Positions 6,634 to 60,695 of a DNA stretch of 64,000 bases are shown here, one piece after another. This stretch comes from Naegleria gruberi (taxonomy: Eukaryota), in assembly GCA_000004985.1 (NCBI GenBank), contig GG738846.1; one strand, given 5' to 3'. The position numbers and the translations under genes are program-made. The notes under the pieces are model-generated. The model did not search any database and had not been told where the DNA came from. It saw nothing but the letters and a program-made list of their open reading frames with translations. The stretch's first letter is position 1; each line of letters opens with the position of its first letter.

Positions 6634-9600
6634 TTAATCCTCTTCATCAGATGGAATAAATTCGTCACCATCATCTTCGCCATCCTCTGGTTCACTGGCT
6701 TCACTATCAGAAAGTTCAATTATTTCCTCCTCCTCTTCTTCTTCATCCTCAGATTCCACCTTCTTATTGGCTCTGGTTGTCCTAACAGGTCTACCTCTGG
6801 CTTTAGGCTCTTCTTTATCTTCTTCAGCATCAGAAACAACAACTTCTTCAGCTTTCTTCTTCAATTCAAAAAAGTCTGTAATACTGGTTTTCCTCTTTTT
6901 GGTTGGTGGTTTTGTTTCCCTGGTCTTTATAGGGGCAGTGATAAGTTCCTCATCCTCTTGTTTTTCGTCACTCTGACTGCTACTGGCAGCTGGTTGGGCA
7001 GGAGTTGTTGCAGCAGAAGTTTTCCTCTTGACTCTCTCTGCAAATGAAAGTTCTTCCTCAGGTTCTTCATCTTTTTTTTCCTCCGCAAGTTCTTCATTCT
7101 TTGTGAAGGATAATTTGGTTTGCTTGGCAGCACTTCTATTCGATTTCACTGCTTTTGGTTTTGCTTCTTCTTCTTCTTCTTCATCATCGTCTTCATCGTC
7201 TTCATCGTCTTCCTCAACTTGTTTTTTGGTAGCTGGTTTTCTGCCACGTTTTGGTTTTTCATCGTCTTTGTCATCTTTCTTTTTAGCTGCAGGCTTTCTT
7301 CCTCGTTTTGGCTTCTCTTCCTTTTCTTCATCTTCCTCTTCGTCAGATTCTTCCTTTACTACCTTTTTGGCAGCTGGTTTTCTGCCACGTTTTGGCTTTT
7401 CTTCCTTTTCTTCTGCATCGTCTTCATCCTCTTCTTTCTTTACAGCTGGTTTTCTACCACGTTTTGGCTTTTCATCATCGTCAGCTTGTTCTTCTTTCTT
7501 TACAGATGTAGCCCTCTTTCTGGTGGTCTTGACCTTGGCTGTTGACTCATTTACGACAATGTCAGGTCTTAGTTTGGAAGTGGCACGATAACCCTTAGGT
7601 CTTGGAATTTTACCATGTTTTCCTCTTTCCTTTTCAATTTTCTTAAGGTAAAAGTCAAACTCCTTTTGTTCCTTTTGCTCATATGAATCTAACTTTTCCA
7701 AAAATTCGTCCAACTCAGAAAGCCACATTGTTTCAGGTTTAGTATTTTCCAACTGTTCAACTTCCTTTACCTTTTCCTCTTTTTCTTTTTCTAATTTCTT
7801 TACTTTCTCAACAGTTAATGACCACAAAGGCATGGACAAAAGATAATTGTATCCGTCAGTAAGATCTGCAACATCCTTTTCTTCATCCTCTTCTTCCTCT
7901 TCTTCCTCGTTTTGGATATCTCCTGCTGCTGCAATCTTCTTTTCCTTTGGGAATGAAGAATACTTCTTTGTTTTGAGTTCTTTTAACAGGTCTGCCTTCT
8001 TTCTCTTTTTCACTTGGATGGTTTCGTTAATAACTTCCATTATAAATCTGACCTTGTTGGAAAGGATTTCTAATTCCTTCTTCATCTTTTCTAGCATGTA
8101 TTCTTTTCTTTTGCCATAGAATTTCAATCTAATTGGATAAAACTCCTTCAAAATGTCCAAAACAGTTTCATATTCTTTGATACCACCCTCTTCAGAAAAT
8201 AAAACCATATTACTAGTAGAGAATTTCTTAAACAATTTAAAGTAGTCATATAGCCCAGCGTCTTCAGCATCTTTCATTTGCTTATCAGTCATTTTAACTG
8301 TGAAAGAGACAGTTACATCAGTGTGATTTTCTCTGAAATCGTCTACTTGTTGAGCTTCCATCATTTTTTCCAGACGTTCTTTGAATGATTCTGTCCATAT
8401 CCTAATTGGTAACTCACTGATATCAAGTGTATTATCATCGATTTTCTCAATGACACCCTTGGTTTGCCATTTGGTTGGAGCTAATCTTTCAATAATACCA
8501 TCAAAGCCTTTATACCATGGATGGAACTCCTTAGCTTCTTCTCCCTTAATCAGTGCCTTGAGTCCTTCGACAATATCAACTGGATTATAGGTTTCAATGT
8601 TTGTAGACCAGGCAGTACCAATACCTTCGGATCCATTTACTAACACCATTGGGAGAATTGGAACGTAAAATCTTGGTTCTATTGATTGACCGTCATCATC
8701 CAAATATTCAAGTACTGGATCATCAGCCTTAGGGAAAATGTATCTGGTAATTTCTGATAATTTTGTAAAGATATATCTGGGACTGGCAGAATCCTTTCCT
8801 CCTTGAAGACGAGTACCAAACATACCACCTGGATAAAGCAAGTTGATATTGTTGCTACCAACAAAATTTTGAGCCATATTTACAACTGTACCATTCAAGC
8901 TGTCTTCACCATGATGGTAGGCTGATTGTTCTGAAACGTAACCGGCAAGCTGAGCAACCTTGATTTCCTTTTTGAGGTTTCTCTTGAAACAACTGAATAA
9001 GATTTTTCTTTGACCAGGTTTTAAACCATCAACAATACTAGGAATAGATCTCTTACAGTCAGCCTTAGAGAAGAGAATCAATTCCTTATCAATAAAGTCT
9101 GTATATGAAATTTCCTTCTTGGAGTGATCAATGTAGGTACCTTCTTGATGATTATTTAGCCATTCCTTTCTTTCATCTGTGGCAGCCTTGGAAAATACAG
9201 AGGTGATCTTTTTATCACAATCAGTATCATACTTGAATCTCTTTTGGTGGAGAGACATATTTGAAAAGTATTCCTTTGCTTCTGGTGCTGTTGAAGTACC
9301 CAAACCCTTGTAGTATTTAATAGTCCAACCTTTTGTATCTGAAAGTCCTTCTTTCCATGTTTCATATTCAGGAATACTGAAAAAGGTTACAGCTTTCTTG
9401 GTACGATTGTTAGTTGCTTTTACGATTGGTGTTATGAATTCTTTCAAAAATCCAGGTATTTTGAGTAAGCTTGGCCAGAATTTGTGAATAAAATTAATGA
9501 GTAAACCTTTGATGTGTGAACCGTCGTGATCTTGATCAGCCATGATCATAATACTACCATATCTGAGGGATTTGATATCCTCCTTTGTGTATGTCTTATC

Positions 9601-11190
9601 AAATTTCAACCCTAAAATTTTAGCAAGAGTACTAATTTCTTCATTCTTTACAACCTTATCCAGTTTACAATCTCTTACATTGAGAGGTTTTCCCTTTAGT
9701 GGGAATACTCCGTAGTAATCTCTACCAACTACACTCAAACCACCAACAGCAAGAGCTTTAGCAGAGTCTCCTTCTGTTAAAATCAAGGTACACTTTTCAG
9801 AATTTTTACTACCAGCATCGTTAGCATCATCCAATTTAGAAATACCAGTCAATCTTGATTTTTTAGTTCCTGATTTCTTATTGAGGGCTTTTTCTGACTT
9901 GAAATCAGCATACTTCAATACTGCTTCTGAAGCCATTTTAGTGACCTTCTTTAAGAATGCTTCATCTAATTTACATTTAGAACCAAAATCTTTCATAGAT
10001 GTGGTAAGAGTTTCCTTAGATTGAGAATCAAAAGATGGGTTAATAATTAGAGAACTGACAAATACCCATAATTGATTCTTAATGTAGGCAGGTTTGATAG
10101 TGTTATTTTTTTTAACCAGTGCCTTTTTGATATTATCTGAAACTTGATTTACGATATGATCAACATGTTTACCGCCTTTGGTTGTGCAAATACTATTGAC
10201 AAAACTGACTTGTTGCATGGAACCTTCACTCAATGTTATACCAACTTTCCATCTCTTACCATCTTCAAAGTAATGAATTTCCTTATCTATTGTGTAAAGT
10301 TTGACATAATCTTTAAATGTTTTCATTCCTGTAATCTTTTTTCCATTCAAATAAATACCAATACCAGTTTTAAGAGTACCTGCCAAATCATAAACTCTCT
10401 TTTTTAATAGGGAAACAATATCATCATCTAGTTTATCCATTCCAAATTTAGAAAGATCAGGATAAAAAGTAATTTCTGTATAACTTTCAGCTTTTGAACA
10501 TGTTGTAATTTTAGGTTCTTCCTCTTTTTCCATATTTTGAGTCCAAGTTTGTCTAAACTTTTTCTTTTCCTCAGAGTCTACTGTTTCAACAATAAACTTT
10601 TCGGAAAATATGTTTGTAAGTTTTGCACCATAACCATTTCTACCACCTGTAACTCTTTTTTGTGTATCATCAAAATTACTACTAGTTAACAAGTGACCAA
10701 AAATCATTGTTGGCACATAAATTTTGTGTTCGGCATGGATCTTGACAGGAATGCCTGCACCATTATTGTAGACTGATATTTCGTTTTGTTCGGGATTGAT
10801 TGTAACTTTAATCTTGTTGCAAGTTTCATCTCTAACAGAGTGATCGGCAGCATTGACTAGAATTTCATCAAAGATTTTATACAAGGCTGGAACAAATTTG
10901 ATAGTTTTCATCTTCATTCTTTTGTCTTCATCATCCCAAATCCACATATCCTCACCTTCTTGCATATTGACTGACCCAACATAGGTATCAGGTCTCAAAA
11001 GGATTTGTTCACGAAGACTTTTCTTTTGATAAATTTCTTCGACAGTCTTGTTCTTGTTGTTGTTAGATTCATCATGATCAATGAATTCAACCTCATCGTC
11101 TGATTCTTCGGCAGCAGAAGCTTCATCATCCGATTCTTCTTTTCTCTTTCTTTTTGGTGCAGCAGCTGGTGCTTTCTTCTTTGGTGGCAT
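6634..11190 (-). CDS. TOP2: DNA topoisomerase II
   Basis: Full ATPase and cleavage-core homology: GGRNGYGAKL, EGDSA, YKGLGTS, DQDHDGSHIKGL, PLKGKPLNV. Likely ATG is MPPKKKAPAAAPKRKRK at complement(11190). The ORF-track start at 11292 is TTG. The acidic/basic C-tail carries four PKRGRKPA repeats. Confidence 0.95.
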   Translation of the reverse strand: MPPKKKAPAAAPKRKRKEESDDEASAAEESDDEVEFIDHDESNNNKNKTVEEIYQKKSLREQILLRPDTYVGSVNMQEGEDMWIWDDEDKRMKMKTIKFVPALYKIFDEILVNAADHSVRDETCNKIKVTINPEQNEISVYNNGAGIPVKIHAEHKIYVPTMIFGHLLTSSNFDDTQKRVTGGRNGYGAKLTNIFSEKFIVETVDSEEKKKFRQTWTQNMEKEEEPKITTCSKAESYTEITFYPDLSKFGMDKLDDDIVSLLKKRVYDLAGTLKTGIGIYLNGKKITGMKTFKDYVKLYTIDKEIHYFEDGKRWKVGITLSEGSMQQVSFVNSICTTKGGKHVDHIVNQVSDNIKKALVKKNNTIKPAYIKNQLWVFVSSLIINPSFDSQSKETLTTSMKDFGSKCKLDEAFLKKVTKMASEAVLKYADFKSEKALNKKSGTKKSRLTGISKLDDANDAGSKNSEKCTLILTEGDSAKALAVGGLSVVGRDYYGVFPLKGKPLNVRDCKLDKVVKNEEISTLAKILGLKFDKTYTKEDIKSLRYGSIMIMADQDHDGSHIKGLLINFIHKFWPSLLKIPGFLKEFITPIVKATNNRTKKAVTFFSIPEYETWKEGLSDTKGWTIKYYKGLGTSTAPEAKEYFSNMSLHQKRFKYDTDCDKKITSVFSKAATDERKEWLNNHQEGTYIDHSKKEISYTDFIDKELILFSKADCKRSIPSIVDGLKPGQRKILFSCFKRNLKKEIKVAQLAGYVSEQSAYHHGEDSLNGTVVNMAQNFVGSNNINLLYPGGMFGTRLQGGKDSASPRYIFTKLSEITRYIFPKADDPVLEYLDDDGQSIEPRFYVPILPMVLVNGSEGIGTAWSTNIETYNPVDIVEGLKALIKGEEAKEFHPWYKGFDGIIERLAPTKWQTKGVIEKIDDNTLDISELPIRIWTESFKERLEKMMEAQQVDDFRENHTDVTVSFTVKMTDKQMKDAEDAGLYDYFKLFKKFSTSNMVLFSEEGGIKEYETVLDILKEFYPIRLKFYGKRKEYMLEKMKKELEILSNKVRFIMEVINETIQVKKRKKADLLKELKTKKYSSFPKEKKIAAAGDIQNEEEEEEEDEEKDVADLTDGYNYLLSMPLWSLTVEKVKKLEKEKEEKVKEVEQLENTKPETMWLSELDEFLEKLDSYEQKEQKEFDFYLKKIEKERGKHGKIPRPKGYRATSKLRPDIVVNESTAKVKTTRKRATSVKKEEQADDDEKPKRGRKPAVKKEEDEDDAEEKEEKPKRGRKPAAKKVVKEESDEEEDEEKEEKPKRGRKPAAKKKDDKDDEKPKRGRKPATKKQVEEDDEDDEDDDEEEEEEAKPKAVKSNRSAAKQTKLSFTKNEELAEEKKDEEPEEELSFAERVKRKTSAATTPAQPAASSSQSDEKQEDEELITAPIKTRETKPPTKKRKTSITDFFELKKKAEEVVVSDAEEDKEEPKARGRPVRTTRANKKVESEDEEEEEEEIIELSDSEASEPEDGEDDGDEFIPSDEED
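7225..7480. repeat. Four tandem degenerate ~60-80 bp repeats inside the TOP2 C-tail, each encoding EKPKRGRKPA(A/V/T)KK (AT-hook-like RGRKP core)
   Basis: The + strand unit gg(t/c)agctggttttctgccacgttttgg(c/t)tt(t/c)tc recurs at ~7228, 7283, 7366 and 7444. Protein: ...DEKPKRGRKPAVKKEE...EEKPKRGRKPAAKKVV...EEKPKRGRKPAAKKKDD...DEKPKRGRKPATKK. Confidence 0.7.
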
Positions 11191-11229
11191 CTTTAATGGT
11201 ATTTTTTTTCTTTTTGTTAACAGAAAATT

Positions 11230-11251
11230 ATTTGTTTGGCGCCAAACAAAT
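11230..11251. promoter_or_regulatory. Perfect 22-bp palindrome ATTTGTTTGGCGCCAAACAAAT with an E2F-type core TTTGGCGCCAAA, ~45 bp upstream of the TOP2 ATG
   Basis: Read directly at 11230-11251. It is its own reverse complement and matches the E2F/DP consensus TTTSSCGC in both orientations. Confidence 0.5.
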
Positions 11252-15292: not shown

Positions 15293-15420
15293 TTCCTCAG
15301 AGATATTGTCTTCCTCCTAAAATCAATATAGAATAACTACCTCAAATAACCTATTTGTCTTATACTACTAGTACCTGTTGAGTTCTTTTTTTAAACTTTG
15401 AAAAACCGTAATTTTAAAAT

Positions 15421-15430
15421 GGCGCCAACC
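15421..15430. promoter_or_regulatory. GGCGCCAACC motif ~130 bp upstream of the cyclase ATG
   Basis: aaaatGGCGCCAACCgac. Same core recurs upstream of IFT70 (22689-22698). Confidence 0.3.
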
Positions 15431-15487
15431 GACATTAACTTTTTGATTTATTCGATTTTTTCAATCACTACCATTAACAAGTTCATT

Positions 15488-20493: not shown

Positions 20494-22627
20494 TTATTCT
20501 AATAATCTCAAACACATTTTCTTTAGTAATCTTGCTTCTTGTGTTACTGTTCGGTCATCTACAGACTTGCCATCAATATCAAGAATGGAAGTATTTACAT
20601 TGGTTGCATCACTGGCACCATCTGCATCTGGACTCAGGGCTGTCTTGATTTCCTTACCATATGTTGCAGCAGCATCTAAAAAGTTCAATATATCAATATA
20701 CGTCTGATCCTTAATGACAATCATGTGTTTGGCAATCGTTTCAAATAATGAGAGGAAGCATCTCTTTGCATAGAACCATGTATCTGTCATAATCTTCTTA
20801 TTGTATGGGATTAAACTCTTCATTACTCTTGAAATACCAAACTCATAGTGACCCTTGGAACAGTAAAGTGTACCAATTACAAGATTAACAATACACAAAT
20901 GAAGAGATTGTTTTTGAGGATTTTGTCTGTGCAATCTTTGCTCTTCATTTTCAATGTTTTTCATCCATTCTTCTGCTTCTTCGTTCATACTCTTCATAAT
21001 ATACGAAACACACAAATTGGCCAAAACCATTGCGTGAACATCTAACAAATTATCCTTTTGTTTGGTTACAATTGGGAGATAGAATTTGATAGCTTCCTTA
21101 AATTTGTTCTCTTGCATAAAGTAAGTGTTGGCCATATTGAGTTTCCAAACGTCGTGGTCAGAACAAAATTCTGCACTTTGGAGGAGAATCTTTTCAACCT
21201 TTGGGTAATTTTCAATATCCCAATAAATCTTTGACATTGCCATTAAAACGGGTACGTATCCCTCCAATGCCTCGTCATAGTCACGAAGAGACTTTTTCAT
21301 TTGATCGCCATCCTTCTTAATTCTGGCGTCTTGTATAATTTTAGTGAGTTTTCTAAGGTTGTCGATATGTTTTGTTGCAAGAATATCCAAGCTTCTGAAA
21401 GCCTCTTCTGGACTCGTTTGAGCCATAATAAGTGCCTCCAAAAAGTCATACAAATCTTGACTCAAATAGCTAAACGACAAGTGACTATTTTCTGCTAAAA
21501 TATCAGCTGCCAAAAGGTAATGTTGATGTTTACAATATAAAAGCAACAAATTTCCAAAAGTTTCAGGAGGGAATGGTGGGTGTTGAATAAGATGTTTGAG
21601 TTTTTTAAACCCTGAATTAGGATCAGATTCCATTTGCAACAATCCTTGGTTGTGTAATGTTACTGGATCCAATTCTTCTTCTGATCTTGGTGGCATCTCT
21701 CTGAGGGCCTCATTACCTTCAACGTAATTCTTCAATTGATATTCAATGGAGAATTTCAAGTTGAAAGATTCAATGAGAGCTGTATTTCTCAATGTTTGAC
21801 TGTTTCCAACACTTCTCACCTCAAATCCGTCCGTGTTACTACCAACACTTAACTCTGGATGTTCCTTTGATCCTCTATCAATAATATCCTGATTATATTT
21901 ACCGGCAATATTATATTGTTTCAATCTATAGTAACACAATGCAATGTTATAAGCAATGTGTGGTTGATATTCCAAAATACTAAGCGCATCTTGGAACTTT
22001 TTCCTTGCCTCTTCATATTTTTCTTCCTTATATAAAATACAACCTTGGAGAACCAAAGTATCTGGGTCATCTTGAATACACTTTTCGGCATGTGATTTTG
22101 TTGTTGCCAAATCTTCCAATTCGTAATGACAAGCCGAGAGTAATTTTTGAACCTTTTAAATTATCTCAATTTTACAAGCTCAAAACAAATCCACTTACTT
22201 TTTGCATTAATTCTTCCGATTCAATCGGAGCACAGGCCTTGATTGCTTCAGGATACATTCCTGCCTTAAAAAGAGATTGAGCCTGATAAAATTTGTATTG
22301 ATCGACAGAAGGATATAGCTTGACTAATTTTTCATAGGTTTGTGCAGATTCAACAAAATTCTGAAGCAAATAGTCGCAATAAGCAAGTAATGAAAGAGCA
22401 GCTCTGCTCTCTGTAAAGAATTCTAATTGATTTTGAAGAATTTGTTTAGCATCCTCATACTTTTTTTCCGTAATAAGGGTGTAGATCACTTTTGTATATT
22501 CACCTTCCTGAACCCGAACACTTGGTCTGCCTCCATTAACAGATGTTCCAGGTCTATTATTCCCCCAAAAACCGGTTGGAAGAGCAGTCATAAGTCTTCC
22601 ACCGGCAGCTGTTGATATTCTATTCAT
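20494..22627 (-). CDS. IFT70: Intraflagellar transport protein 70 (TTC30/fleer/DYF-1). Two exons: complement(join(20494..22152, 22199..22627)), 46-nt intron 22153..22198.
   Basis: Exon 1 ...EGEYTKVIYTLITEKKYEDAKQILQNQLEFFTESRAALSLLAYCDYLLQNFVESAQTYEKLVKLYP... aligns with the human TTC30A N-terminus. Intron GTAAGTGG...TTAAAAG keeps the frame (...LMQK|VQKLLSACHYELED...). TPR repeats throughout. Confidence 0.9.
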
Positions 22628-22688
22628 TTTTTACGATATTGTTTTTTCGTTGTTATTTTCCGCCATGTAGAATTTTGTAGTTGTTATT

Positions 22689-22698
22689 GGCGCCAACC
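22689..22698. promoter_or_regulatory. GGCGCCAACC motif ~65 bp upstream of the IFT70 ATG
   Basis: ttattGGCGCCAACCacc. Half-palindromic E2F-like core. Confidence 0.3.
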
Positions 22699-38921: not shown

Positions 38922-38957
38922 GGCGCCATGAGGTTTACTGAAATCTACCCGCCAAAA
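38922..38957. promoter_or_regulatory. GGCGCCA plus CCCGCCAAAA motifs ~100-125 bp upstream of the 39049 gene
   Basis: aaaGGCGCCAtgagg ... ctaCCCGCCAAAAttgc. Confidence 0.3.
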
Positions 38958-39048: not shown

Positions 39049-41501
39049 ATGAGAAAGGCATCACTCACCAAAGATACTACCATACTTCCAAAAGTTCATG
39101 TTTCAGCAAGTGGGAGAAAGGGGTCTGTCAGCGCAAAGGCAGCCCCACCTTCAGAATTTTCAGCATCAACATCCGATACAGTCAAACAGGCTGAAAAAGC
39201 TCTCCCTCTCCCGAATATTAGAAACAAATCCCCAGAATCTCTCTCCCTCTCCTATGAAAAGGAATTAAGAATTGAAACACCAAAAACTGAGAAGGCCATG
39301 TTTGAAACTGGTGCTTACGGAATGGTGGATCTTAGACTTCCAACCAAACAACAACCTTCTAGTCCTCTAACAAAAACAATGCGGTCTCCTTCAAAATACA
39401 AAAGTCTTTCATTCAGTTTGGATATGGAGGAAAGGGATAACTATGACAGTTCTCTATTTTCTCAGGAATTATCATCTTTTACCCTCTCTCATAATCAAAT
39501 TGTTGAATCGTGCTGGGATTACCTTCACCAAACTCCTTCCAGTGGAGCTCCAATGTCTAGCGAGCAAGCCAAGGCTCTCTTTAGTTCTTTAAGCAAAAAG
39601 AGAGAAGCAAAAGAGAGTGATGTTTACGATGACATTCAGAGTATTATCTCGTCAATGAAATGTGAGGAAGAAAGGCAAGAAATTGACATTGAAAATGCAA
39701 AGAAAAAGGATATTTCAAAGAGGAAACCAAAAAAAACATCAAGTGTAAGAAAACAAGTTGACGAAAGATTGAAAATATTGTATCATAATCCAGATGAGTT
39801 GGAAAGACTTGAAAAGGACATCTCTCATTATGAGAAACACGCTAAGGAAATTGAAATGGAGAGAAAGGCTCATTCCATTTATGTACAAAGAAATAAGAAA
39901 GTTCCAGAAAATTTCAAAGAGATTAGAACCCAACACTTGAGACAGGAAGTAAGTTTTTGGAATACAAATTCTAATCATTTAATATTTTGTAGTTCAAAAA
40001 GCGTGACGAAAAAATAGCTCAAGCAAAGGGAAGAAAGGAACAAATCACAAAAGAGTTCCAGGAACGAAAGGAAAATTTGGCTTTGAAAGATGAAAAAAGA
40101 AGACAACTTGCCGAATACTTTAGAATGGAAACTGAGAATAAGGCTAAGGATGCAGAAATGTATTCTAAATGGTCATTTTTGGTTTCTCTATTATCAAGAT
40201 TTTTAGTGTTTGCAAGAGAACTCTTGAGAAGAAGATATCTCAGAAAAGAAGAGGAAAAGTTTAAGCGAGTTAAGAGGATTGCCTACACCAAATTATTACC
40301 AGTCATTTGGGCCAAGAGAAGCGAAAAGTGGAGACAAGCTTGGGATGTTTTCAAAAAGTAAGTTCAAGCTAATTTATATCATGTTTACTATTGAAATAGA
40401 CATTGGATTTTCTATAGATTGTGGATTGGTGTCAAGAAGAAGAAGGAGTCAACTATGATTATTAAATCATTCTTAAGAGAAACAAATATGTCCTTTCAAA
40501 TTGTCAGACAGGTTCACTTGTTTTGGAGTAAAGTGATTAAGGTGCAAAGATTTTTGAGAAAGTGGCACCAAATCAAACAAGCTCAAATCATGGTTCAAGT
40601 TCTCCAGTATTCAATAGTCGAAGCTAAAATGTTAAGAGGTATACCATTAAAGGGTGAATCCATAGCTGAAAACCCAAAAAAGAAAAAAGTGTTTGGACGA
40701 AGATTTTCTGGTCAGTTAACTTCAGCATTACTGAGGGAAGAAAGTAAATCTAACTCAACAACACCAATACCTACCGATGACCAAACAGATGAAAAGGAGG
40801 ATAAATTCAGATTCAAACTTCTCAGACTTACATTGGATAAAAAGAAGGAAATTATTTACTCTGATCTAAAGCAGAGAAGAAACGATTATATTACTGCCCA
40901 AAAGATTTACAAGAACAAACTTCAACAATATGACAGAAGAGTCCAACAGTTAATGTACATTCTACAAGCCAAGAGTGCTCTCAGCGGTGGAGATATGACA
41001 ATAGATCCTTCATCAATTAGAGACGAAAACGGTGAAATAATTGAAAAACCAAAACCTCCATATCTCAAAGTAATTTTGAGTGAAATTGAAATGAAAAGAT
41101 TGGTCAATATTGGGCAAAAAGAGCTCAAAGAAAAAGAAGACAAAAAGAGGCAGAAAATTCTGGCCAATTATGTGGAATTCAGTGAAAAACAAAACGAGTT
41201 GGATAAAAAGAGAGAAAAATGGGAAAACAAAGTTGCAAGTGGATTTGAAGAGATGAAACAAGTTCTCGGGTCATTTCTTGGATTTGAGCAATTATTATTG
41301 TCTCCATTCGAATCTGAAAAGAAGCCAACTTCAGTTACCCCAGTTGATCCGAATGGTAGTCTCAATTCTCTTAAGGGTGGTATTTCTCGCTCCTATAACA
41401 GCAGTCCTATTGTTTCAAAACCTCCTCAACCACCAAAGAAGAAGCCAACCCTTTCAAAGATTGGCGTTCAAAGTTCCACCACTTTAACAAAACGATTTTA
41501 A
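39049..41501 (+). CDS. Hypothetical coiled-coil protein with IQ-like basic motifs. Three exons: join(39049..39948, 39993..40357, 40400..41501).
   Basis: Three consecutive ORFs joined by 44-nt (GTAAGTTTTTGG...TTTGTAG) and 42-nt (GTAAGTTCAAGC...GAAATAG) introns, giving one 789-codon frame (...HLRQE|FKKRDEKIAQ...; ...DVFKK|HWIFYRLWIGVKKKKE...). IQ-like VIKVQRFLRKWHQIKQ. Confidence 0.6.
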
Positions 41502-41608: not shown

Positions 41609-43932
41609 TTATTTTCCACCACGTTCTTTTGCCTTTTCTTGGGCAATCTTTTCCTTGATTGCATCCCAATTAGTTTCCATTTCTTGATATTGCAAGAATT
41701 CTGGCTTGTTTTCCTCTTGTCCTGTTTCCATCAAATATCTTCTTCTGTAGGCAATTACAGTATCAATATGTAATTTGAACCTCTTTGCCAAATCCAGAGC
41801 TCTGTCCCATTTATACAATTTTATATGCATCTTCACAGCTCTGTAAATTAATCTGGCTTGCAACAGAATGCTCTCTGCTTCATCAATATTTCTCATAAAT
41901 AAGGCAATGGCTGCATTCTTAGCTTCAGCTGAAGGAAGTCTCTTGATATTTGAAATGTATCTTAATTTGTCAACCTCTTCGAGTGCGGCTAACCCAACTT
42001 CAGCAGTATTGAGCTGGTTCAATTTAATTGCCATACCAACCAATGTAGCCCAAATGGCCTTATCTTTAACAAATCTACAAAGACGGATAGCTTGTTCCCA
42101 CTTTTTGTTTTCTATTAATTCATATAAAATTAATGGATATGGATGAACAGATTCTGTAATTACTGCTCCGTCAATTCTTCTAATATTGATCTTGGTATCG
42201 AAAAAGTCTCTAATGATAGATTGCTTTCCAATGTCATCCTTTTCAAACTTGACATAATCAAGCAAATCTCTGTCTACATATACAATCTTTGGATAATAGT
42301 AAACCAATAGCTGTCCTCCAGAAATAACAGACATCAAATCGGATTGGTCATTCCACATTGCAGAATCAACCATTGTTGCCAATTTGAAAACATCTCCTGT
42401 CTTTTTGGCCTGACTAATGTACAAATCTCTATTTCTATCAATAAATGCAATACATCTCTCACTCTTTGGGCCGAACTGGCTTACTTCGACTTGAGTTATT
42501 TCCATGTTATGCACAATCTTATCCAATTCTTTACCATTATTAACATCGAGCAACCTAATTGCTGTTGATTTGGCCTCTCCCTTATCAATGATAGCAATAA
42601 TATCATCGCTAAGACCAACAGCTTGATTATTCAAAAATTCTGTTCTTAAACCAGAGAATTTTGGATTACTCAATAATCTACCTTCATAGTTGTAAATTTG
42701 AATACCACTGAAATTGTCCATAGTAAGGAAGTTGTTTTTTGATTGCAAAATGAGATTGATATTATCCTTTACATCAAAAACATGAGGGGTTCCCAAGTTC
42801 TTGATATCATATACCCAAACTTGGGTCCATGTTGCAACAATTAATTTACCAAATCCTAGAGACCAGTTAATGACCTTATCACGGAACGAAATATCTTCAG
42901 ATCCTTCAGAGACGAGGTCAAAAACTTTAAGAGTAACATCATTTTCTAGCGAGACGAGTAAATTCTTCCATGCCAAGGATTTACCAACAATGTTTCCAAA
43001 ACAAACTCTTCCATTACCACCTCCTGCAGCAATTTGTGTTCCATCACTAGTCCAAGAAATATCTGTAATACTTCCTGTATTTGTTGTGTTTCTAGAGATT
43101 GTCCAACCTGATTTATCACAAATCTTGAGTGTATTGAAAGATCCAACAGCAAACAATTCACCATTAGGGGACCAGGATACACTTGTTATACTGTAATCAA
43201 ATGGAGTACTTGTATATAAAAGTCGTCCAAAATTGTCCCAAACCTTATATTTACCGTCTTCACCTCCACTAACAATCATGTTAGTGAGAGGATTCCAATC
43301 AACTTTGAGAATTTGAGAATCGTGAGCCTTCCATTGTATTTGTTTAGAGGCAACATGGATTGGCTTAATAACCAATTCTCTTCCATTTGTAAATAAAACT
43401 TCCTCACTAGATGGCCCCCAAGTTACTGAATAAACACTCTTTCCGACACTTGCTAGAGTGGATCGGAGCTGGCCACCTCTTGACCAAATTCTCAATACAC
43501 CATCTTCACCTGCGGTCACTAGGGCATTACCTTCATAACTCCAACGAATGGTAACTACGGCACCCTTGTGTGCGTTTGCAACTGTTTTTTCAATTCTTCC
43601 TGTTTTTGACACTAACCTAAATGATCCATCGGCACAACTTATTGCAAAAACATCTGATGTACTTGATGCTAATTTTTTGCTATATGATGGAAACCAGTGC
43701 ATATCGGTAACAATTACATCCAACTCACTCAATTTCGCTATTGGTTCTCCATTTAAATTCCATTTCCAAATAGATTTATCATCAGAAATACTAAATAATT
43801 GATTTTCTCCTCGTGACCATCCAACACAAGTGCAAACTTCCTTGTCTTTATAAATATTTATTGATTTAGAGGGTACAAGCTCAAAACACACTTACGTTGT
43901 TGTGCTGTAGACTCTTGGAGTTGTAGTTTCAT
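41609..43932 (-). CDS. IFT80: Intraflagellar transport protein 80 (WD-repeat). Two exons: complement(join(41609..~43845, ~43896..43932)); intron ~51 nt.
   Basis: Near-colinear with human IFT80 along its length (...CVGW..., LVTAGEDG.LRIWS, SVTWGPSSEEVLFTNGRELVIKP, WKAHD..ILKVDWN, SAMWNDQSDL..., LCRFVKDKAIWATLVGMAI...). The 37-nt 5' exon MKLQLQESTAQQ(H) plus intron restores MKLQLQESTAQQHKEVCTCVGW (cf. [22 protein letters not shown]). Confidence 0.9.
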
Positions 43933-43966: not shown

Positions 43967-44013
43967 AACCGCCAACAACAATCAGTAGACATTAAAAAAC
44001 GGTTGGCGGGAAA
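43967..44013. promoter_or_regulatory. Two inverted E2F-like elements upstream of IFT80: AACCGCCAAC (43967-43976) and GGTTGGCGGGAAA (44001-44013, reverse complement TTTCCCGCCAACC)
   Basis: TTTCCCGCC is a textbook E2F core. Positions are about -35 and -70 from the IFT80 ATG. Confidence 0.35.
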
Positions 44014-44043: not shown

Positions 44044-46679
44044 TTAAAGATAATCTGTGCCCATCGATGATTCTGTATTGTCATTATCATTAACTTCGGT
44101 CCTATTCATATTTTCTCTCATGTTATTGATAGATATTTCACAAAGACGATAGAGTTGGAAGGTTGCTTGGTCAATTGTGCCTGTTTGAGTTTGCTCATTG
44201 ATGATGGTATTTAATAAATCTCTTGCCTCCTCAAATTTACTATCTTCAAATAATTGGTGAGCTCCGTTATATTCATCCCATTTGTGTTTTTTCGTTTTCT
44301 CATGCAATTCATACATCCACTTTATAAAAACAATGAATAACATTTGAGATTAATAATACTTACCTCTTGGTCCTGTTGAATTATCTTCTCCTCTCCAACT
44401 TCATACAAGTTGTAAATTTCCTCTTCCCTTCCTTCCGTATTTAGGCAAGTGTTTGAAAAACTTGTTTGGCTATTGAGTAGAAAAACATTTCCAATAAATC
44501 TGTGATAGTACTTTTCACTAGTGGCCTTTTTGAAATATTCTGGAACAGTCATCTTGATATCTAATTCAACACAAATATCATTCATCTTTCGAATGGTTTC
44601 CATTACATGATCAGTATTAAAAGGAGTGAAAATAGTTGGTGTGGCAAGACCACATAATAACTTTTGTTGAAACGTCACCATTCTAAACTTGATTGGATGT
44701 TTGATTTTGATCTTTTCTAATTGATCTAAAAAGAAATAATTGTTAGAGATGATCTTATCAATTGGGAAAGTATTAGTGGCAAAATTATAAAAGAGACCAA
44801 TAACATTAGTAGAGAGAAATCCAGCCTTACACCCCTTCTGACTACACATTGTTGTTATCTTTTCACAACATTCCAATAAAAAGTGAATAGCTTCTCCCAT
44901 ATTTGAGGTGGCAACTTGATCAAGTCCTTCAAGTGAGACGCCAACACATATAACTTCTCTTTCTTCAATCACTTGTTGGTGTCTCTTCTTGTTGGCAAAT
45001 TTAAAGCTATTGGAGAGGAAAGATCCAATTCCTTCCTTATTTTGGGTTTTGGCGAATTGTTGGGAGGATTTCAAATCAATTGATTTGTTAATGGACAAAT
45101 CGGATTCATACTTGACAATGGGATTTTTCTGAATAAATGATTGATTATTACTCTGTGGACTCACCAACCTTCCAATCATTTCTCTTAAAAACTTGAATTC
45201 GTGGAGATTTCTCACGAGAGGTGTTTTTAAATTCTTCTTTCTTGGAACTCCATTAAAACTTTCCTTGATACCATACGTTTCGTCAACCATTTGAAAAATC
45301 TCATTAAGCGGCCTCAAAAAGAGCCAAATAAATGTAATTGAAAGAATAGCCAATACAATAAATAATATCAAGTTGGCTGCTAAGGTTATTAGCATTGGTG
45401 AAACGAGAGAACTTGTCAAACTGCTTGTTGGTATGGAGGTCACAAGGATTAAATCCAGTCTTTCACCTAAGCACATTCTCTTCATAAACAGGGTTTGGAT
45501 ACTATCAGCATCCTCTACTATTATCTGTTGGGAGCATTCTGTTGGCTTTGATTTCTTAATTTTCTCTATTTGAGTACTGGAAAAGTCAAATTTAGCACCA
45601 AGAACAGAGGTTGAGTTTGTATCCATGAGCATTATATTTCCATTAACTGAATAGTACATTGTTGGTACAAGAGCCTTTGCACACAGTCTATTCAAACTTA
45701 GATCCATTGCAAAGTAGTAAAAGTTAGACTTGGAATCTATCCACTTTTTTAACAGTCTAACAGTATTTCTTTCAGATACAAGTCCAACTATTTGAATTGA
45801 TTGAAAATTATCCCTCACTAGAGTATTCTCAATTCTTAACTCTGTATTAGAAAATGTTTTCGAAGAACCCATCTCACATTCACTCTTACTTGTCCAATCT
45901 TGACAAAAAGTTAGGGAATTGAGGGATTGGGATGAATTCATCATGTATAATTCTCCACCATAATAAAAAACTCCAACCTTATTTCCAAAAGCATCTCCAA
46001 TATAAATAGAACTAACGAGATCTAACTCCTTTTCAACTATTGCCTTGAATACTCCAAAAAAATTAAACTCTCCATTTTTCAAATCACTAATAGAATCATT
46101 AATCAAAATCTTCAATTGGCTAGTGACAGACTCCGATAATATAAGCATGTTATTAAGAGTGTTTTCAATATTTTTCTCTGAATTCAAAGAATCGAGTATT
46201 ACTATCTTGTTATTTGTATTTTTCAAAGTCAATCCAAAGGAGACTATCCACGAACAAGTCAACAAAATAAATAATAGAAATAATATAAAGCAAAACACAA
46301 CACTCAGCCAACATTTGACTGTTTGTTTCGATTGAAGCCATATAATACATTCTCCCTCAGAATTTTCCTTATTTTCTTCACCCATTGATGTATTCTCTTC
46401 TTCAGTTTCTTCATTGTTCGATTCTGGTGTTAGTACTCTTCGCGATATTTCAATAGACTGTTGTATTTCGGGTTGATGTTTTGCAGAGTTGACCATTTCA
46501 TTAGCAATATTCTTGTGATCGTTGGGGGAGGCATTTAAATTCGCAAAGACAGGTTCAGGTATTTCTCTATTCGAAAGAGAGAGCGAGAGTCGTCTAGATT
46601 TCGTTGAGGAAATACTGTGAGAGCTATTAGATGAGGTAAAGGGCATTACCAGAGTTGATGATATTGTACTGGGCTGCAT
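44044..46679 (-). CDS. Two-TM sensor protein with a C-terminal degenerate cyclase-homology-like domain (receptor-type nucleotidyl-cyclase-like, probably catalytically inactive). Two exons: complement(join(44044..~44339, ~44386..46679)).
   Basis: TM1 CWLSVVFCFILFLLFILLTCSWIVSFGL, a ~300-aa extracytoplasmic region, TM2 MLITLAANLILFIVLAILSITFIWLFL, then ...EVICVGVSLEGLDQVATSNMGEAIHFL...FRMVTFQQKLLCGLATP...FTPFNTDHVMETIRKM... This resembles a class III cyclase domain but lacks the metal-binding Asp residues. A 46-nt intron (GTAAGTATTATTAATC...TATAAAG) joins it to the downstream 99-aa ORF. Confidence 0.5.
45872..46358. repeat. Copy A of a 487-bp duplicated segment (5' coding part of the sensor gene). 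About 99% identical to 51783..52269.
   Basis: The identical 96-aa antisense ORF appears at 46045..46335 and 51954..52244. Direct sequence comparison shows a single mismatch region (ataAtt vs ataCtt). Confidence 0.8.
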
Positions 46680-46737
46680 ATTACAAGCAAGTTGGAATGA
46701 AATGGTGATAGAACGACCTTTTTTTGATCTATTTCTG

Positions 46738-46966
46738 AGGTGTACTGATATCTCTTTTCAATAAACTTCAAGAATTTAAAATAGGTAGACTATACTTTTT
46801 GTATTGAATAATTGTAATTTACAATTTCTTATTTTCAAAAACTGACTCTGAAATTATTGGTACAAAATCTTCGGCCTTATATAATTTGTGTTCGTTAATA
46901 TATTTCTCAACCTTATCGTGAACATAGTATTTTACAGAGTTGTTTCTTCGAACCAATTGTCTAATT
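46738..46966. repeat. 229-bp fragment duplicating the NMNAT 3' end (last ~49 codons plus 80 nt of 3' flank). Copy of 52271..52499.
   Basis: gtgtactgatatctcttttcaataaacttcaag...gaaccaattgtctaa is shared. Similarity ends abruptly at 46966 (A: ttcatgttgg; B: ctttggtaga). Confidence 0.8.
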
Positions 46967-47614: not shown

Positions 47615-47650
47615 TGGCGTAACATTAATTGCGTCAAAAAGTGTTTTGAC
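47615..47650. promoter_or_regulatory. Perfect 15-bp-stem palindrome ttaattgcgtcaaaa(agtg)ttttgacgcaattaa, 15 bp upstream of the F-box/LRR gene start
   Basis: Read directly from sequence. Function unknown (hairpin or dimeric TF site). Confidence 0.3.
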
Positions 47651-47662
47651 GCAATTAAAAAA

Positions 47663-49318
47663 ATGTTTGGACGCAAACACATTAGAGAAAATAGGCAGAA
47701 CAGCACAACTATACCTTTTGGTGGCGCACTTCCAACAATAATTTCTTTTCTTGATCAAAAATCATTTCTGTCTTTTGTTGGTGTTTGTAGTTACATCCGA
47801 TATTTTGTAGAATCAATGAAAATAACTAAAGAGTTTGATTCTAACAAAAGGAATGTACATGCCGTTTATTTAGCAACGAGACAATTAAATTTTGAAAAAG
47901 TTTCCTTCCACAAACTGTTCACCAAATTATCATTCACAAAAGTCTCTGTTTCCAAAAATCAAATGAACCTATTATTAACATCCAACAAAGTAGATAGTCT
48001 CACATTTAGATCTTCACAAGTATCACTCCCTAATTCACTCCCTAACATCATATCCACAATTTCCAAACTTGTTTTAGAAAATATGGTAATTGATGTTGGT
48101 AAAATAGGGAACGTATTCAATAACATTAAGCATATGTCTTTTAAAAAAGTTGGTTTTAATTGGAACTTGATGGAGCAATTTTTAAAATTGAAGTTTAATT
48201 GTTTAGAAAGTTTATATTTTAGAGATGATGAATTGGATACTGATTGCATCAATATTTTTTTTATGAGCAGGAACTTTAAAACTCTAAAATCTATTACGTT
48301 CAAGAGTTATTGTTTAAACTATATTGCCAAAATCAACAAAGATAACTTCCCACATCTAGAAAAATTTACCTTGAAATCACGTTACAAAAATGATGAAAAT
48401 ATTATAAATATATTAGAAAGTCAGTTAGATCTGAAAGAATTATATACCTATACTACACTATCAGAAGAGATAATCTCAAGCTTGTTGAAAAATCCTAATT
48501 TAAATATTATTAATATGATAGCACCAAGCATTTTTGAACAGGCGCAGATAGACGAGAAGCTTTTTTTTTTGTTAATGAGTAGACTAAAATGCTTAACTGA
48601 AATTTCTTTAATAATACCATCTAATCTTGTGCCCATTTTAACTGCAAACACTAATGCACAAAAGATAGCAATTAATACATCATCAATTCCAGCTATTCAA
48701 ACGCCATTATTCAACTTTCAATCAATCCTTCGGATATTAGAATTGCATAATACTTCATTACTAGATATTGATTGTGTTGCCATAAGCTCCTCCAATATTA
48801 AGGAACTTAAGATGGTTAGCTGTAATTTCATTGGTGAAGGATATACTAATATCGCAAACATGACTCAACTAAAGGTTCTTTCACTTAACCGCTTGCTCTT
48901 CCCAACGACAATAATTGATCCATTCCACATTTTTTTGGGTGGTTCATTAATTTCACTGGAGAAGTTTGAATACACTTCATTGCACTTCAGAAACGACTTT
49001 TGTTTACCAAACGACCTAGTTAACCTTCCCAAATTGACATTTTTTGAAACCTGTTCTCCTACTTATATTGATTTGCAGAAACTTTTACAAAATTCTAAAG
49101 TAGCTACATTAGATCTTTCTTTTGAGTTTTTTTTGAATTTCGAGTTCTTGGACAACCTCTTAACTAAAAATCATTCCATTACCCAGCTAATACTACCACC
49201 AAAGGCCGAAGAAAGGTTCAAAGATCAAAGAAAATCATACCTCAAACAAATATCTAGAATTCAAAAACTGTTCAATATTCAAGTTTCATTTAGCAAACAT
49301 ATGCTTGTGTTTGAATAA
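47663..49318 (+). CDS. Hypothetical F-box-like / leucine-rich-repeat protein
   Basis: N-terminal LPTIISFLDQKSFLSFVGVCSYIRYF is F-box-like, followed by irregular LRR-like L..L..L.L units. Lies in the 4.8-kb block between the duplicated segments. Confidence 0.4.
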   Translation: MFGRKHIRENRQNSTTIPFGGALPTIISFLDQKSFLSFVGVCSYIRYFVESMKITKEFDSNKRNVHAVYLATRQLNFEKVSFHKLFTKLSFTKVSVSKNQMNLLLTSNKVDSLTFRSSQVSLPNSLPNIISTISKLVLENMVIDVGKIGNVFNNIKHMSFKKVGFNWNLMEQFLKLKFNCLESLYFRDDELDTDCINIFFMSRNFKTLKSITFKSYCLNYIAKINKDNFPHLEKFTLKSRYKNDENIINILESQLDLKELYTYTTLSEEIISSLLKNPNLNIINMIAPSIFEQAQIDEKLFFLLMSRLKCLTEISLIIPSNLVPILTANTNAQKIAINTSSIPAIQTPLFNFQSILRILELHNTSLLDIDCVAISSSNIKELKMVSCNFIGEGYTNIANMTQLKVLSLNRLLFPTTIIDPFHIFLGGSLISLEKFEYTSLHFRNDFCLPNDLVNLPKLTFFETCSPTYIDLQKLLQNSKVATLDLSFEFFLNFEFLDNLLTKNHSITQLILPPKAEERFKDQRKSYLKQISRIQKLFNIQVSFSKHMLVFE

Positions 49319-51739: not shown

Positions 51740-52303
51740 CTAATACCTCAGACAATTACCATCCAGCAACAGGATCTGCATTTCACATTCACTCTTACTT
51801 GTCCAATCTTGACAAAAAGTTAGGGAATTGAGGGATTGGGATGAATTCATCATGTATACTTCTCCACCATAATAAAAAACTCCAACCTTATTTCCAAAAG
51901 CATCTCCAATATAAATAGAACTAACGAGATCTAACTCCTTTTCAACTATTGCCTTGAATACTCCAAAAAAATTAAACTCTCCATTTTTCAAATCACTAAT
52001 AGAATCATTAATCAAAATCTTCAATTGGCTAGTGACAGACTCCGATAATATAAGCATGTTATTAAGAGTGTTTTCAATATTTTTCTCTGAATTCAAAGAA
52101 TCGAGTATTACTATCTTGTTATTTGTATTTTTCAAAGTCAATCCAAAGGAGACTATCCACGAACAAGTCAACAAAATAAATAATAGAAATAATATAAAGC
52201 AAAACACAACACTCAGCCAACATTTGACTGTTTGTTTCGATTGAAGCCATATAATACATTCTCCCTCAGAGGTGTACTGATATCTCTTTTCAATAAACTT
52301 CAA
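51740..52303 (-). pseudogene. Truncated duplicate of the sensor/cyclase-like gene (residues ~100-270, single L to V change). No start region or cyclase-like domain.
   Basis: Protein EGECIIWLQSKQTVKCWLSVVFCFILFLLFILLTCSWIVSFGL...GGEVYMMNSSQSLNSLTFCQDWTSKSECEM is identical to the 44322..46679 product apart from ELY to EVY. It is fused at 52270 directly to the NMNAT 3' flank. Confidence 0.7.
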
Positions 52304-52499
52304 GAATTTAAAATAGGTAGACTATACTTTTTGTATTGAATAATTGTAATTTACAATTTCTTATTTTCAAAAACTGACTCTGAAATTATTGGTACAAAAT
52401 CTTCGGCCTTATATAATTTGTGTTCGTTAATATATTTCTCAACCTTATCGTGAACATAGTATTTTACAGAGTTGTTTCTTCGAACCAATTGTCTAACTT
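51783..52499. repeat. Copy B of the duplicated block. Equals copy A 45872..46358 joined directly to 46738..46966, i.e. lacking A's intervening 379 bp.
   Basis: Junction in B is ...ctccctcagaG|GTGTACTGA.... In A the same two pieces are separated by the sensor gene's 5' coding end and upstream region. Micro-homology (gagg) at the junction. Confidence 0.8.
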
Positions 52500-59448: not shown

Positions 59449-59461
59449 CTCCCGCCAAAAG
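59449..59461. promoter_or_regulatory. CTCCCGCCAAAAG E2F-like element ~55 bp upstream of the 59514 gene
   Basis: Read directly. Matches TTTSSCGC loosely (CTCCCGCC). Confidence 0.3.
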
Positions 59462-59513: not shown

Positions 59514-60695
59514 ATGTGGGAAGTTATTAGGAAAAAGTATGATGGTTACGGTGATGGAGTTGTGGAGAACCAGGAAATAAATTTTGCAACAAACAACCAA
59601 CATATTGCCAAATTCAGCTGCAAACCCAATCCAAAAGAACAAGATCCAAACAGTTGCACTCCTGGGTATGGAGCTTTGCTGTACACTAAAATCAACAAAC
59701 TTACCCAATCAGATAATGAAATTTTGGTGATTAAGAGTGTTAGGAGTTTGCATGATTTATATAAGGCAGATACAAAGAATATTACTGCTAGTATCCTCTA
59801 CACGGAAGATAAACTCATTCCTAATCTCGTTGATTTACTCAAGAAGGATTTTGCTAGAGAGGATGTTTTGAGAACCCTGTGTAAATCTTACAAGGCGAAA
59901 ATTGCTCGTGACCAGGTCATTCCTCATGTTGAAGAAATTCAACAATTCATCCTAAACAATTACAAAACTGAAAACCCAACCAATATTTACCTCACTCTTA
60001 AACTATTTAAGGGAGTGTGTTTTGAAAAGGAGCCGTGTAAAATTGTTACTGACACAGGTGTCTTACCGGTTCTTACAATGAAATGTCTGAACCATTTTCA
60101 ACAGAAGGATATGAATCCAAAAGTGATGAAGAATGGATTCAAATTATTGAACAATTTGTTACAGGTTCCAAAGACCCATGTAGTTTTAGTGGAAGAGGAT
60201 CAAATTTTCTTACTAGTGGAAGACATATTTGAGCATCATCCAACCGATGAGAAAATACTGATTTCTCTAATGGAACACATTTCAAAACTGAGTTTTTATA
60301 CTGATGGTTTGACGAAATGTGGTAGATTTATCTATTATATAATGCCTCACCTTAGATCAAAGAATCAAATACTTTTACTAGAATCTATTAATGCCCTGTC
60401 ACATATTACTATTAGCGTAGAAGCCAAATGTCAAATTATGGATAGGGAAAGTCAAATTAAGAAGCAATTTATTGCAAATCTTGTTCATGTTTTTGATGGA
60501 TACCAGAAGGAATATCAAAATGATTACATTTTCATTAATAATTTGAAAATTATTTGTAATTTGGCAGAGAAGGACAGACCATCTCTTTTATTCCTTCTGC
60601 CAAAGATTATGGACCTTGTAGTTCTATCCACAACCAATGAAAGTGTGAAAGAAGAATTAGAAAATACATACCGTATCATCTCATATAAACCTTAG
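59514..60695 (+). CDS. Hypothetical alpha-helical (ARM/HEAT-like) protein
   Basis: 393-aa ORF starting with a true ATG. No recognisable motif. Confidence 0.45.
   Translation: MWEVIRKKYDGYGDGVVENQEINFATNNQHIAKFSCKPNPKEQDPNSCTPGYGALLYTKINKLTQSDNEILVIKSVRSLHDLYKADTKNITASILYTEDKLIPNLVDLLKKDFAREDVLRTLCKSYKAKIARDQVIPHVEEIQQFILNNYKTENPTNIYLTLKLFKGVCFEKEPCKIVTDTGVLPVLTMKCLNHFQQKDMNPKVMKNGFKLLNNLLQVPKTHVVLVEEDQIFLLVEDIFEHHPTDEKILISLMEHISKLSFYTDGLTKCGRFIYYIMPHLRSKNQILLLESINALSHITISVEAKCQIMDRESQIKKQFIANLVHVFDGYQKEYQNDYIFINNLKIICNLAEKDRPSLLFLLPKIMDLVVLSTTNESVKEELENTYRIISYKP

Follow-up and report, generated by a model that had tools for sequence, protein, structure and literature searches.

An unusually long palindrome lies in the short gap between two genes of Naegleria gruberi, and we wanted to understand what it does there and whether it belongs to a wider promoter code. 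The DNA analyzed is a 64-kb stretch (64,000 nucleotides of contig GG738846.1), referred to here as the window. An earlier note on this DNA had described a perfect 22-bp palindrome at 11230–11251, ATTTGTTTGGCGCCAAACAAAT, and the window sequence confirms this exactly. The element sits in the 125 bp that separate the stop codon of a cyclase-domain gene from the start codon of DNA topoisomerase II (TOP2), 65 bp from the cyclase stop. TOP2 is a single open reading frame on the minus strand (6634–11190, identified by Pfam), and its N-terminus is that of the annotated N. gruberi TOP2 protein, with the same start codon. Measured from this ATG (11190), the near edge of the palindrome is 39 bp upstream and its centre roughly 50 bp, in agreement with the distance of about 45 bp given in the earlier note. 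The window holds no longer perfect palindrome, and among its palindromes with arms of at least 9 nucleotides this is the only one that includes G or C. In simulated sequences of the same dinucleotide content, perfect palindromes of at least 22 bp arise 0.05 times per 64 kb.

The core of the palindrome, TTTGGCGCCAAA at 11235–11246, matches TTTSSCGC on both strands in a pattern scan, and the earlier description of it as an idealised bidirectional E2F/DP site is therefore sound. E2F/DP sites follow the consensus TTTSSCGC, and some are palindromes: DHFR has TTTCGCGCCAAA, and E2F1 binds best to TTTGGCGCCAAA in vitro. With the canonical sites of animals and plants the N. gruberi element shares an identical 12-bp core, a position close to the start codon and a proliferation gene as its presumed target. 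It differs from them in a symmetry that extends to 22 bp and in its lineage, the Heterolobosea. Furthermore, its TTTGTT/AAACAAA flanks recur in a distant heterolobosean contig (L008, below), whereas the textbook site does not require them.

Medina et al. (2016; PMC4862756, supplementary files 4 and 6) give the N. gruberi sequences of E2F, DP, DEL and RB, one of each. By Pfam, the E2F protein (NgruE2F) consists of E2F_TDP and CC-MB domains, NgruDP of E2F_TDP and DP domains, and NgruDEL of two E2F_TDP stretches. The best structural match of the NgruE2F DNA-binding domain is human E2F4 in the E2F4-DP2-DNA crystal 1CF7 (E=7e-25), with which it shares an identical 24-residue stretch that includes RRIYD and the recognition helix. 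Among solved structures, its dimerisation and marked-box region is nearest to E2F4 and E2F5. By eye, the C-terminus GEGVSDLFL (EGxxDLF) resembles the RB-binding tail of animal E2Fs, and we take it to be the equivalent. N. gruberi thus resembles the canonical system in encoding E2F, DP and RB and in having kept the DNA-reading helix and, presumably, the RB-binding tail. The earlier note had named the presence of E2F and DP genes as a check on its reading; both are in the genome with their DNA-contacting residues conserved, and a factor of the expected specificity therefore exists.

If the palindrome matters to TOP2, a related element should be found in front of TOP2 elsewhere. TOP2 orthologues were collected by homologue search from N. 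fowleri, N. lovaniensis, a Naegleria sp. (84% identical), Willaertia magna and relatives at 60–64% identity, and the pattern was fixed beforehand as TTSSCGC or SCGCCAA. By this pattern, six of seven heterolobosean taxa carry a TOP2 promoter site, 40–170 bp upstream of the ATG; given each locus's own background density, a stretch of 170 bp would hold such a site by chance with a probability of 0.014–0.045 per locus. In N. lovaniensis (L005) the site is GTTGGCGCCAATC / GTTGGCGCCAATCAAAT at −86, with a run of N between site and ATG. The aligned position in N. fowleri (L004) reads CGCGCCATTC / AAACGCGCCATTCAAAT at −50; only the CGCGCC core is left there, and it fails the preset pattern. The Naegleria sp. 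(L006) has CTTCCCGCCAC at −43, the sole SCGCCA site in 8.4 kb, and Willaertia magna (L007) has both ATTTCCCGCCAAAT and GGTTTCGCGCC, at −83 and −44. At −81 in the JGI heterolobosean contig L008 stands TTTGTTGGCGCTCAAACAAA, which is close to the N. gruberi palindrome, flanks included, and L018 carries TTTTAGCGCCAAAAA at −166. No site was found in L019, of which only 66 bp upstream of TOP2 are present.

Beyond the block GTTGGCGCCAAWCAAAT the flanks of these TOP2 promoters cannot be aligned. The upstream neighbor also changes: elsewhere, a same-strand Ras/Arf gene takes the place that the cyclase gene has in N. gruberi. Because the neighbor differs yet the element is kept, the element travels with TOP2 and not with the 3' end of the cyclase gene. 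A site that recurs despite unalignable flanks and another neighbor is very likely functional, and we conclude that the TOP2 palindrome is very probably a functional, conserved site of the E2F family. The E2F reading of the earlier note is borne out on both counts, by E2F, DP, DEL and RB in the genome and by sites at TOP2 in six of seven taxa.

Two aspects of these assemblies deserve mention. In N. lovaniensis the promoter block TGGTATGTTGGCGCCAATCAAATT is present twice, at L005 9299 and 9916, about 617 bp apart; the second copy directly precedes the run of N, and one copy falls inside an annotated 153-aa gene. Either the block was duplicated in tandem or the doubling is an artefact of the assembly. 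In addition, contigs L001, L002 and L003 from an ENA metagenome (ERZ929261, run ERR1078381) are 99.6% identical to the window, so that sample contained DNA of N. gruberi or a very close strain; L001 and L003 were too close for footprinting.

Across the 93 kb of related loci the motif is rare, with one to four sites per locus. Two of these lie at other genes: CTTGGCGCGATTG (L008, 10180), an E2F-like site 19 bp upstream of a Yippee/Mis18 gene, and the E2F-like ATTGGCGCCAAAA (L007, 19142) in the divergent promoter of INO80. Judged by motif and position, the Mis18 and INO80 genes are plausible further members of the regulon, which would fit a set of proliferation and chromatin genes.

The TOP2 promoters share one further feature. 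The CDE/CHR tandem is found at G2/M genes such as animal TOP2A (DREAM/MuvB), with TTTGAA as the CHR and a classical spacing of 4 bp. Similarly, in the TOP2 promoters of four taxa a WWCAAAT(T) element starts 1–3 bp after the GC core (window 11215–11235 in the minus sense; L004 6137–6150; L005 9924–9935; L008 503–512; L018 2845–2858), and an exact TTCAAA, which is the CHR in reverse, is present in N. fowleri and L018. The arrangement differs from the classical one in its spacing, which is unlike 4 bp, and it is imperfect in N. gruberi (AACAAA). From its sequence and placement, WWCAAAT(T) may represent a CDE/CHR-like tandem or the transcription start region.

The earlier note had also proposed that related elements lie 35–130 bp upstream of five other genes. 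In a window of roughly 33% G+C, about 80% of which is covered by long open reading frames, GGCGCCAA occurs five times against 0.21 expected. The broader pattern SCGCCAAM occurs eight times against 1.10 expected, a count reached in none of 100 shuffles. All eight copies, at six loci or promoter regions, fall outside the long open reading frames, that is, in 19.7% of the window, and words of the GCGCCA/CCGCCA type are the sole k-mers enriched there that are not AT-rich. The motif marks six of the roughly 33 window promoters, with start codons 33–130 bp away (the start of the cyclase gene being ambiguous), in both orientations and at variable distances from the ATG. It is absent from all other intergenic regions of the 64-kb window, as the earlier note had claimed for those at PDI, Nup107/DDX49, IUNH and NMNAT.

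Strict TTTSSCGC, in contrast, is not enriched on its own in the window, with three matches at two loci against 1.12 expected and seven of 100 shuffles reaching three. SCGCCAA[A/C] is therefore a better description of the family than the complete E2F consensus. Perfect TTTSSCGC matches are limited to the TOP2 palindrome (both strands) and the distal IFT80 site (once), and the remaining sites show one or two deviations or only the SCGCCAA half. Because only these two sites are perfect, membership among E2F sites is firm for two and provisional for the rest.

We then considered each site with its gene. Pfam and PDB searches support the gene names given in the earlier note (TOP2, cyclase domain, IFT70, IFT80), and Pfam also confirms PDI-like genes, Nup107, a DEAD-box helicase, IUNH and NMNAT in the window. 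The other sites that the note had listed are all where it placed them; for the cyclase site, however, it is ambiguous whether it precedes its gene. This site, GGCGCCAACC (15421–15430, plus strand), lies at the 5' side of an adenylate/guanylate cyclase catalytic-domain gene (11316 to about 15435, minus strand, Pfam), which comprises two long open reading frames and has an uncertain 5' end. Read by eye, the site is either about 175 bp upstream of the first in-frame ATG or inside a candidate first exon. This candidate exon has 13 codons, starting with an ATG at 15435 on the minus strand and followed by a GT...AG intron ending at 15317; if it is real, GGCGCCAAC falls within the first codons and not upstream.

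At IFT70 (TTC30; 20494–22627, minus strand, two open reading frames with a short intron, TPR by Pfam, PDB match 8bd7_C with E=1e-210), the element TTGGCGCCAACC with the palindromic core TTGGCGCCAA occupies 22687–22698, 60–70 bp upstream of the ATG (22627). About 30 bp from this element there is a weaker second site, TTTTCCGCCAT (22660–22666, plus strand), 33 bp upstream of the ATG. IFT80 (41609–43932, minus strand, Pfam) has a 13-codon first exon, a short intron and a 760-codon open reading frame, its exons read from the sequence. Its proximal site is CCGCCAAC (context AAAACCGCCAACAAC; 43969–43976, plus strand), 37 bp upstream of the ATG (43932), and 35 bp from this is the distal site TTTCCCGCCAACC (44001–44013, minus strand), a perfect TTTSSCGC about 72 bp upstream of the ATG. 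Two sites also precede a 322-aa protein gene (39049–40017, plus strand) that has neither a Pfam nor a PDB match: GGCGCCAT at 38922–38929 and CCCGCCAAAA (reverse complement TTTTGGCGGG) at 38948–38957, both on the plus strand, 126 and 100 bp upstream of the ATG (39049), respectively. A PDB scan of ten concatenated open reading frames that had no assignment gave no match.

In four promoters, namely those of IFT70, IFT80, the 322-aa gene and Willaertia TOP2, the motif is thus paired at a distance of 26–36 bp (22660/22690, 43969/44004, 38923/38949 and L007 9921/9957). This spacing, about three helical turns, hints at cooperative or double occupancy.

The sixth locus proved to be informative as to function. 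Here CCCGCCAAAA (reverse complement TTTTGGCGGGAG; 59451–59460, plus strand) lies 62 bp upstream of the ATG of a gene at 59514–60695 (plus strand), annotated only as 'predicted protein'; the protein encoded by 59514–60692 is identical to XP_002682713.1 / NAEGRDRAFT_45519. A PDB search with the single sequence gave a weak RSP14 match first. With a profile built from 13 homologues (exhaustive search), the match to 9e5c_3j runs end to end (positions 1–368 of 380; E=1.3e-62), and Chlamydomonas RSP14 (8.9e-49) and mammalian RSPH14 (1.6e-44 and 9e-39) match as well. Generic armadillo-repeat proteins are interspersed in the ranking but cover less of the profile. Given the end-to-end match, the gene is a radial spoke protein gene, the RSP14/RSPH14 orthologue, and this assignment gives a function to what had been annotated only as a predicted protein.

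Other features of the window are recorded here as observations in their own right. A recent segmental duplication of 99.6% identity has placed a copy of the 5' part of a 785-aa membrane protein gene (44322–46679), together with the region upstream of it, beside the NMNAT gene; 45870–46361 corresponds to 51779–52270 and 46734–46964 to 52266–52496. A 187-aa open reading frame at 51740–52303 is the duplicated fragment of the membrane protein gene. Elsewhere, TTAATTGCGTCAAAA forms an inverted pair (47627–47641, plus strand; 47650–47664, minus strand) directly upstream of an ATG at 47663 and recurs at 5927, and AATTGCG is found five times outside the long open reading frames and never inside them. 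By its sequence, TTAATTGCGTCAAAA/AATTGCG may represent another promoter motif, one that belongs to the bZIP-like TTGCGTCA type.

With RSP14 assigned, all three recognizable flagellar genes of the window (IFT70, IFT80 and RSP14) carry the E2F-like motif, compared with three of about 30 other genes (TOP2, the cyclase and the 322-aa protein). The hypergeometric p of about 0.004 for this difference, over some 33 genes, is post hoc and comes from small numbers. Most of the flagellar-gene sites correspond to the CGCCAA half of the E2F consensus only. A metagenome scan recovered two near-identical contigs (L013/L014) that carry an orthologue of IFT80 with 60% identity, and in L013 the gene has a 13-codon first exon and intron as in N. 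gruberi. Its divergent promoter, 113 bp in length, contains a perfect TTTSSCGC match, TTTGCCGC, 57 bp upstream of the ATG; at the local density the chance of this site, in one distant orthologue, is about 0.05. The comparison leaves out L009–L012 and L015–L017 (37–44% identity), which were too distant or transcript-like.

The suggestion in the earlier note that an E2F-like code reaches flagellar-assembly genes is therefore upheld in part: three of three genes and one weakly significant orthologue speak for it, and the mostly half-consensus sites and the small, post hoc numbers temper it. Going by these motifs, an extension of the same E2F code to flagellar genes would be possible rather than probable. 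Naegleria flagella are built in non-dividing, differentiating cells, and the 'replication-coupled' flagellar programme of the earlier note is speculation.

How the half-consensus sites are read bears on whether one factor or two would act on this family. A tentative rival reading, which we find unlikely though substantial, separates two motifs: the TOP2 palindrome, perhaps with the CCCGCCAAAA sites, would be E2F sites, and the SSCGCCAACC[G/A] sites would serve another differentiation or flagellar factor that shares the CGCC core. The sequence SCGCCAACC is indeed found three times in the window against 0.04 expected, at the cyclase, IFT70 and IFT80 genes only; its AACC extension lies outside TTTSSCGC, for which strict matches are not enriched, and the sites at TOP2 orthologues are mainly of the ...CCAAA/CCAAT type. 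The cilia-gene factors of Naegleria are also described as unknown in a 2025 review (PMC12183034), which leaves room for such a protein. However, the distal IFT80 site matches TTTCCCGC perfectly as well, IFT70 has the palindrome TTGGCGCCAA that is likewise found at N. lovaniensis TOP2, and at RSP14 the site belongs to the AAAA type. The TTTGCCGC of the distant IFT80 orthologue fits E2F degeneracy and not CGCCAACC, and no candidate for the second factor is known.

Simpler readings fare less well. It is improbable that the motif is a generic Naegleria core-promoter or transcription-start element without gene-class specificity: its strictly promoter-proximal placement, 33–130 bp from start codons, and the conserved CAAAT(T) after the GC core in several TOP2 promoters, a possible start region, would suit such an element, but only six of about 33 window promoters carry it, it is rare in the related loci, and neither its orientation nor its distance to the ATG is fixed. 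One could also picture a hairpin, in RNA or DNA, that signals the 3' end or the termination of the cyclase transcript: the palindrome lies in the gap behind the cyclase gene, whose stop codon is on the same strand, and a 9-bp stem is possible. We rejected the RNA-hairpin reading since the fold is no better than that of shuffled sequences (z = −0.23); a signal of this kind is very improbable in any case, as the element is kept at TOP2 where the neighbor is a Ras/Arf gene, and at the other genes the related sites lack the form of a palindromic hairpin. Chance occurrence without function is just as hard to credit. Some 22-bp perfect palindrome is present in 5% of simulated 64-kb sequences, yet the enrichment of the family, its exclusive location in promoters and its recurrence across species all argue for function.

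We therefore return to the E2F reading, in which the palindrome is an E2F-family site in the TOP2 proximal promoter and the SCGCCAAM copies belong to the same family and would define a small shared regulon; taken as a whole, this is the account that we consider probable. The sequence of the element, its rarity, its position and its conservation in Heterolobosea are direct observations, as are the presence of the factors and their conservation; to these we add, as inferred steps, E2F binding and cell-cycle timing at TOP2. The palindrome would be bound by the single E2F4/5-like E2F together with DP, and possibly also by the two-domain DEL. The central GGCGCC would be read by the winged-helix RRxYD motifs of E2F and DP, and the symmetric TTT/AAA flanks would allow the heterodimer to fit in either orientation. 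RB bound to the conserved C-terminal EGxxDLF of E2F would repress the gene, and its release would activate TOP2 at entry into the division cycle. The simplest view of the SCGCCAAM sites, eight in six promoters, is that they form one motif family. In the weakest step of this proposal, IFT70, IFT80, RSP14, the cyclase gene and the 322-aa gene would be part of the same small regulon, either activated or repressed.

Several sites can also be compared with those of atypical E2F proteins. Atypical E2F7/E2F8/DEL proteins recognize sites of the TTCCCGCCAAAA type, and those at RSP14 (CTCCCGCCAAAAG), the 322-aa gene (TACCCGCCAAAAT), IFT80 (TTTCCCGCCAAC) and Willaertia TOP2 (ATTTCCCGCCAAAT) are alike; likewise, N. 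gruberi DEL has two E2F_TDP domains. DEL proteins differ in being DP-independent repressors, and which site goes with which family member is not readable from sequence.

The flagellar part of the family invites comparison with known systems of cilium gene control. To our knowledge, Naegleria lacks RFX, FOXJ1 and XAP5 and builds its basal bodies de novo. In vertebrate multiciliated cells, E2F4/5-DP1 forms a ciliogenic complex with Multicilin/GEMC1 (PMC12183034). An E2F4/5-like factor, cilium genes and de novo basal bodies are common to both settings, a likeness that we understand as analogy and not as membership. The vertebrate complex differs in that it mainly drives centriole amplification and FOXJ1/RFX, not IFT or radial-spoke genes directly, and FOXJ1 and RFX are reported absent from Naegleria. 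The X-box of RFX factors is similar in that it, too, is palindromic in part and lies no more than about 100 bp from the start codons of IFT and axonemal genes. We rejected it as an explanation: the window has no strict match to GTHNYY-AT-RRNAAC, the IFT70, IFT80 and RSP14 promoters have no relaxed match, and RFX is reported absent from Naegleria (PMC12183034).

In the literature that we could search, no promoter element had been described earlier for Heterolobosea, a deep eukaryotic branch. Taken alone, the TOP2 site represents ordinary E2F biology in a new lineage, and it means that an E2F cis-code can be read, and is conserved, in Heterolobosea. The rest of the family bears on the control of the cilia genes of Naegleria, whose factors a 2025 review describes as unknown (PMC12183034), and the lead offered here is a rare short motif at all three flagellar genes of the window. 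On this basis, it is conceivable, though we hold it to be doubtful, that an RB-E2F module, acting through the single E2F4/5-like E2F or through DEL, is the missing flagellar-gene switch in Naegleria. If true, cell-cycle exit and ciliogenesis would have been coupled much earlier, and the link between E2F and cilia in vertebrate multiciliated cells would be a reflection of that coupling.
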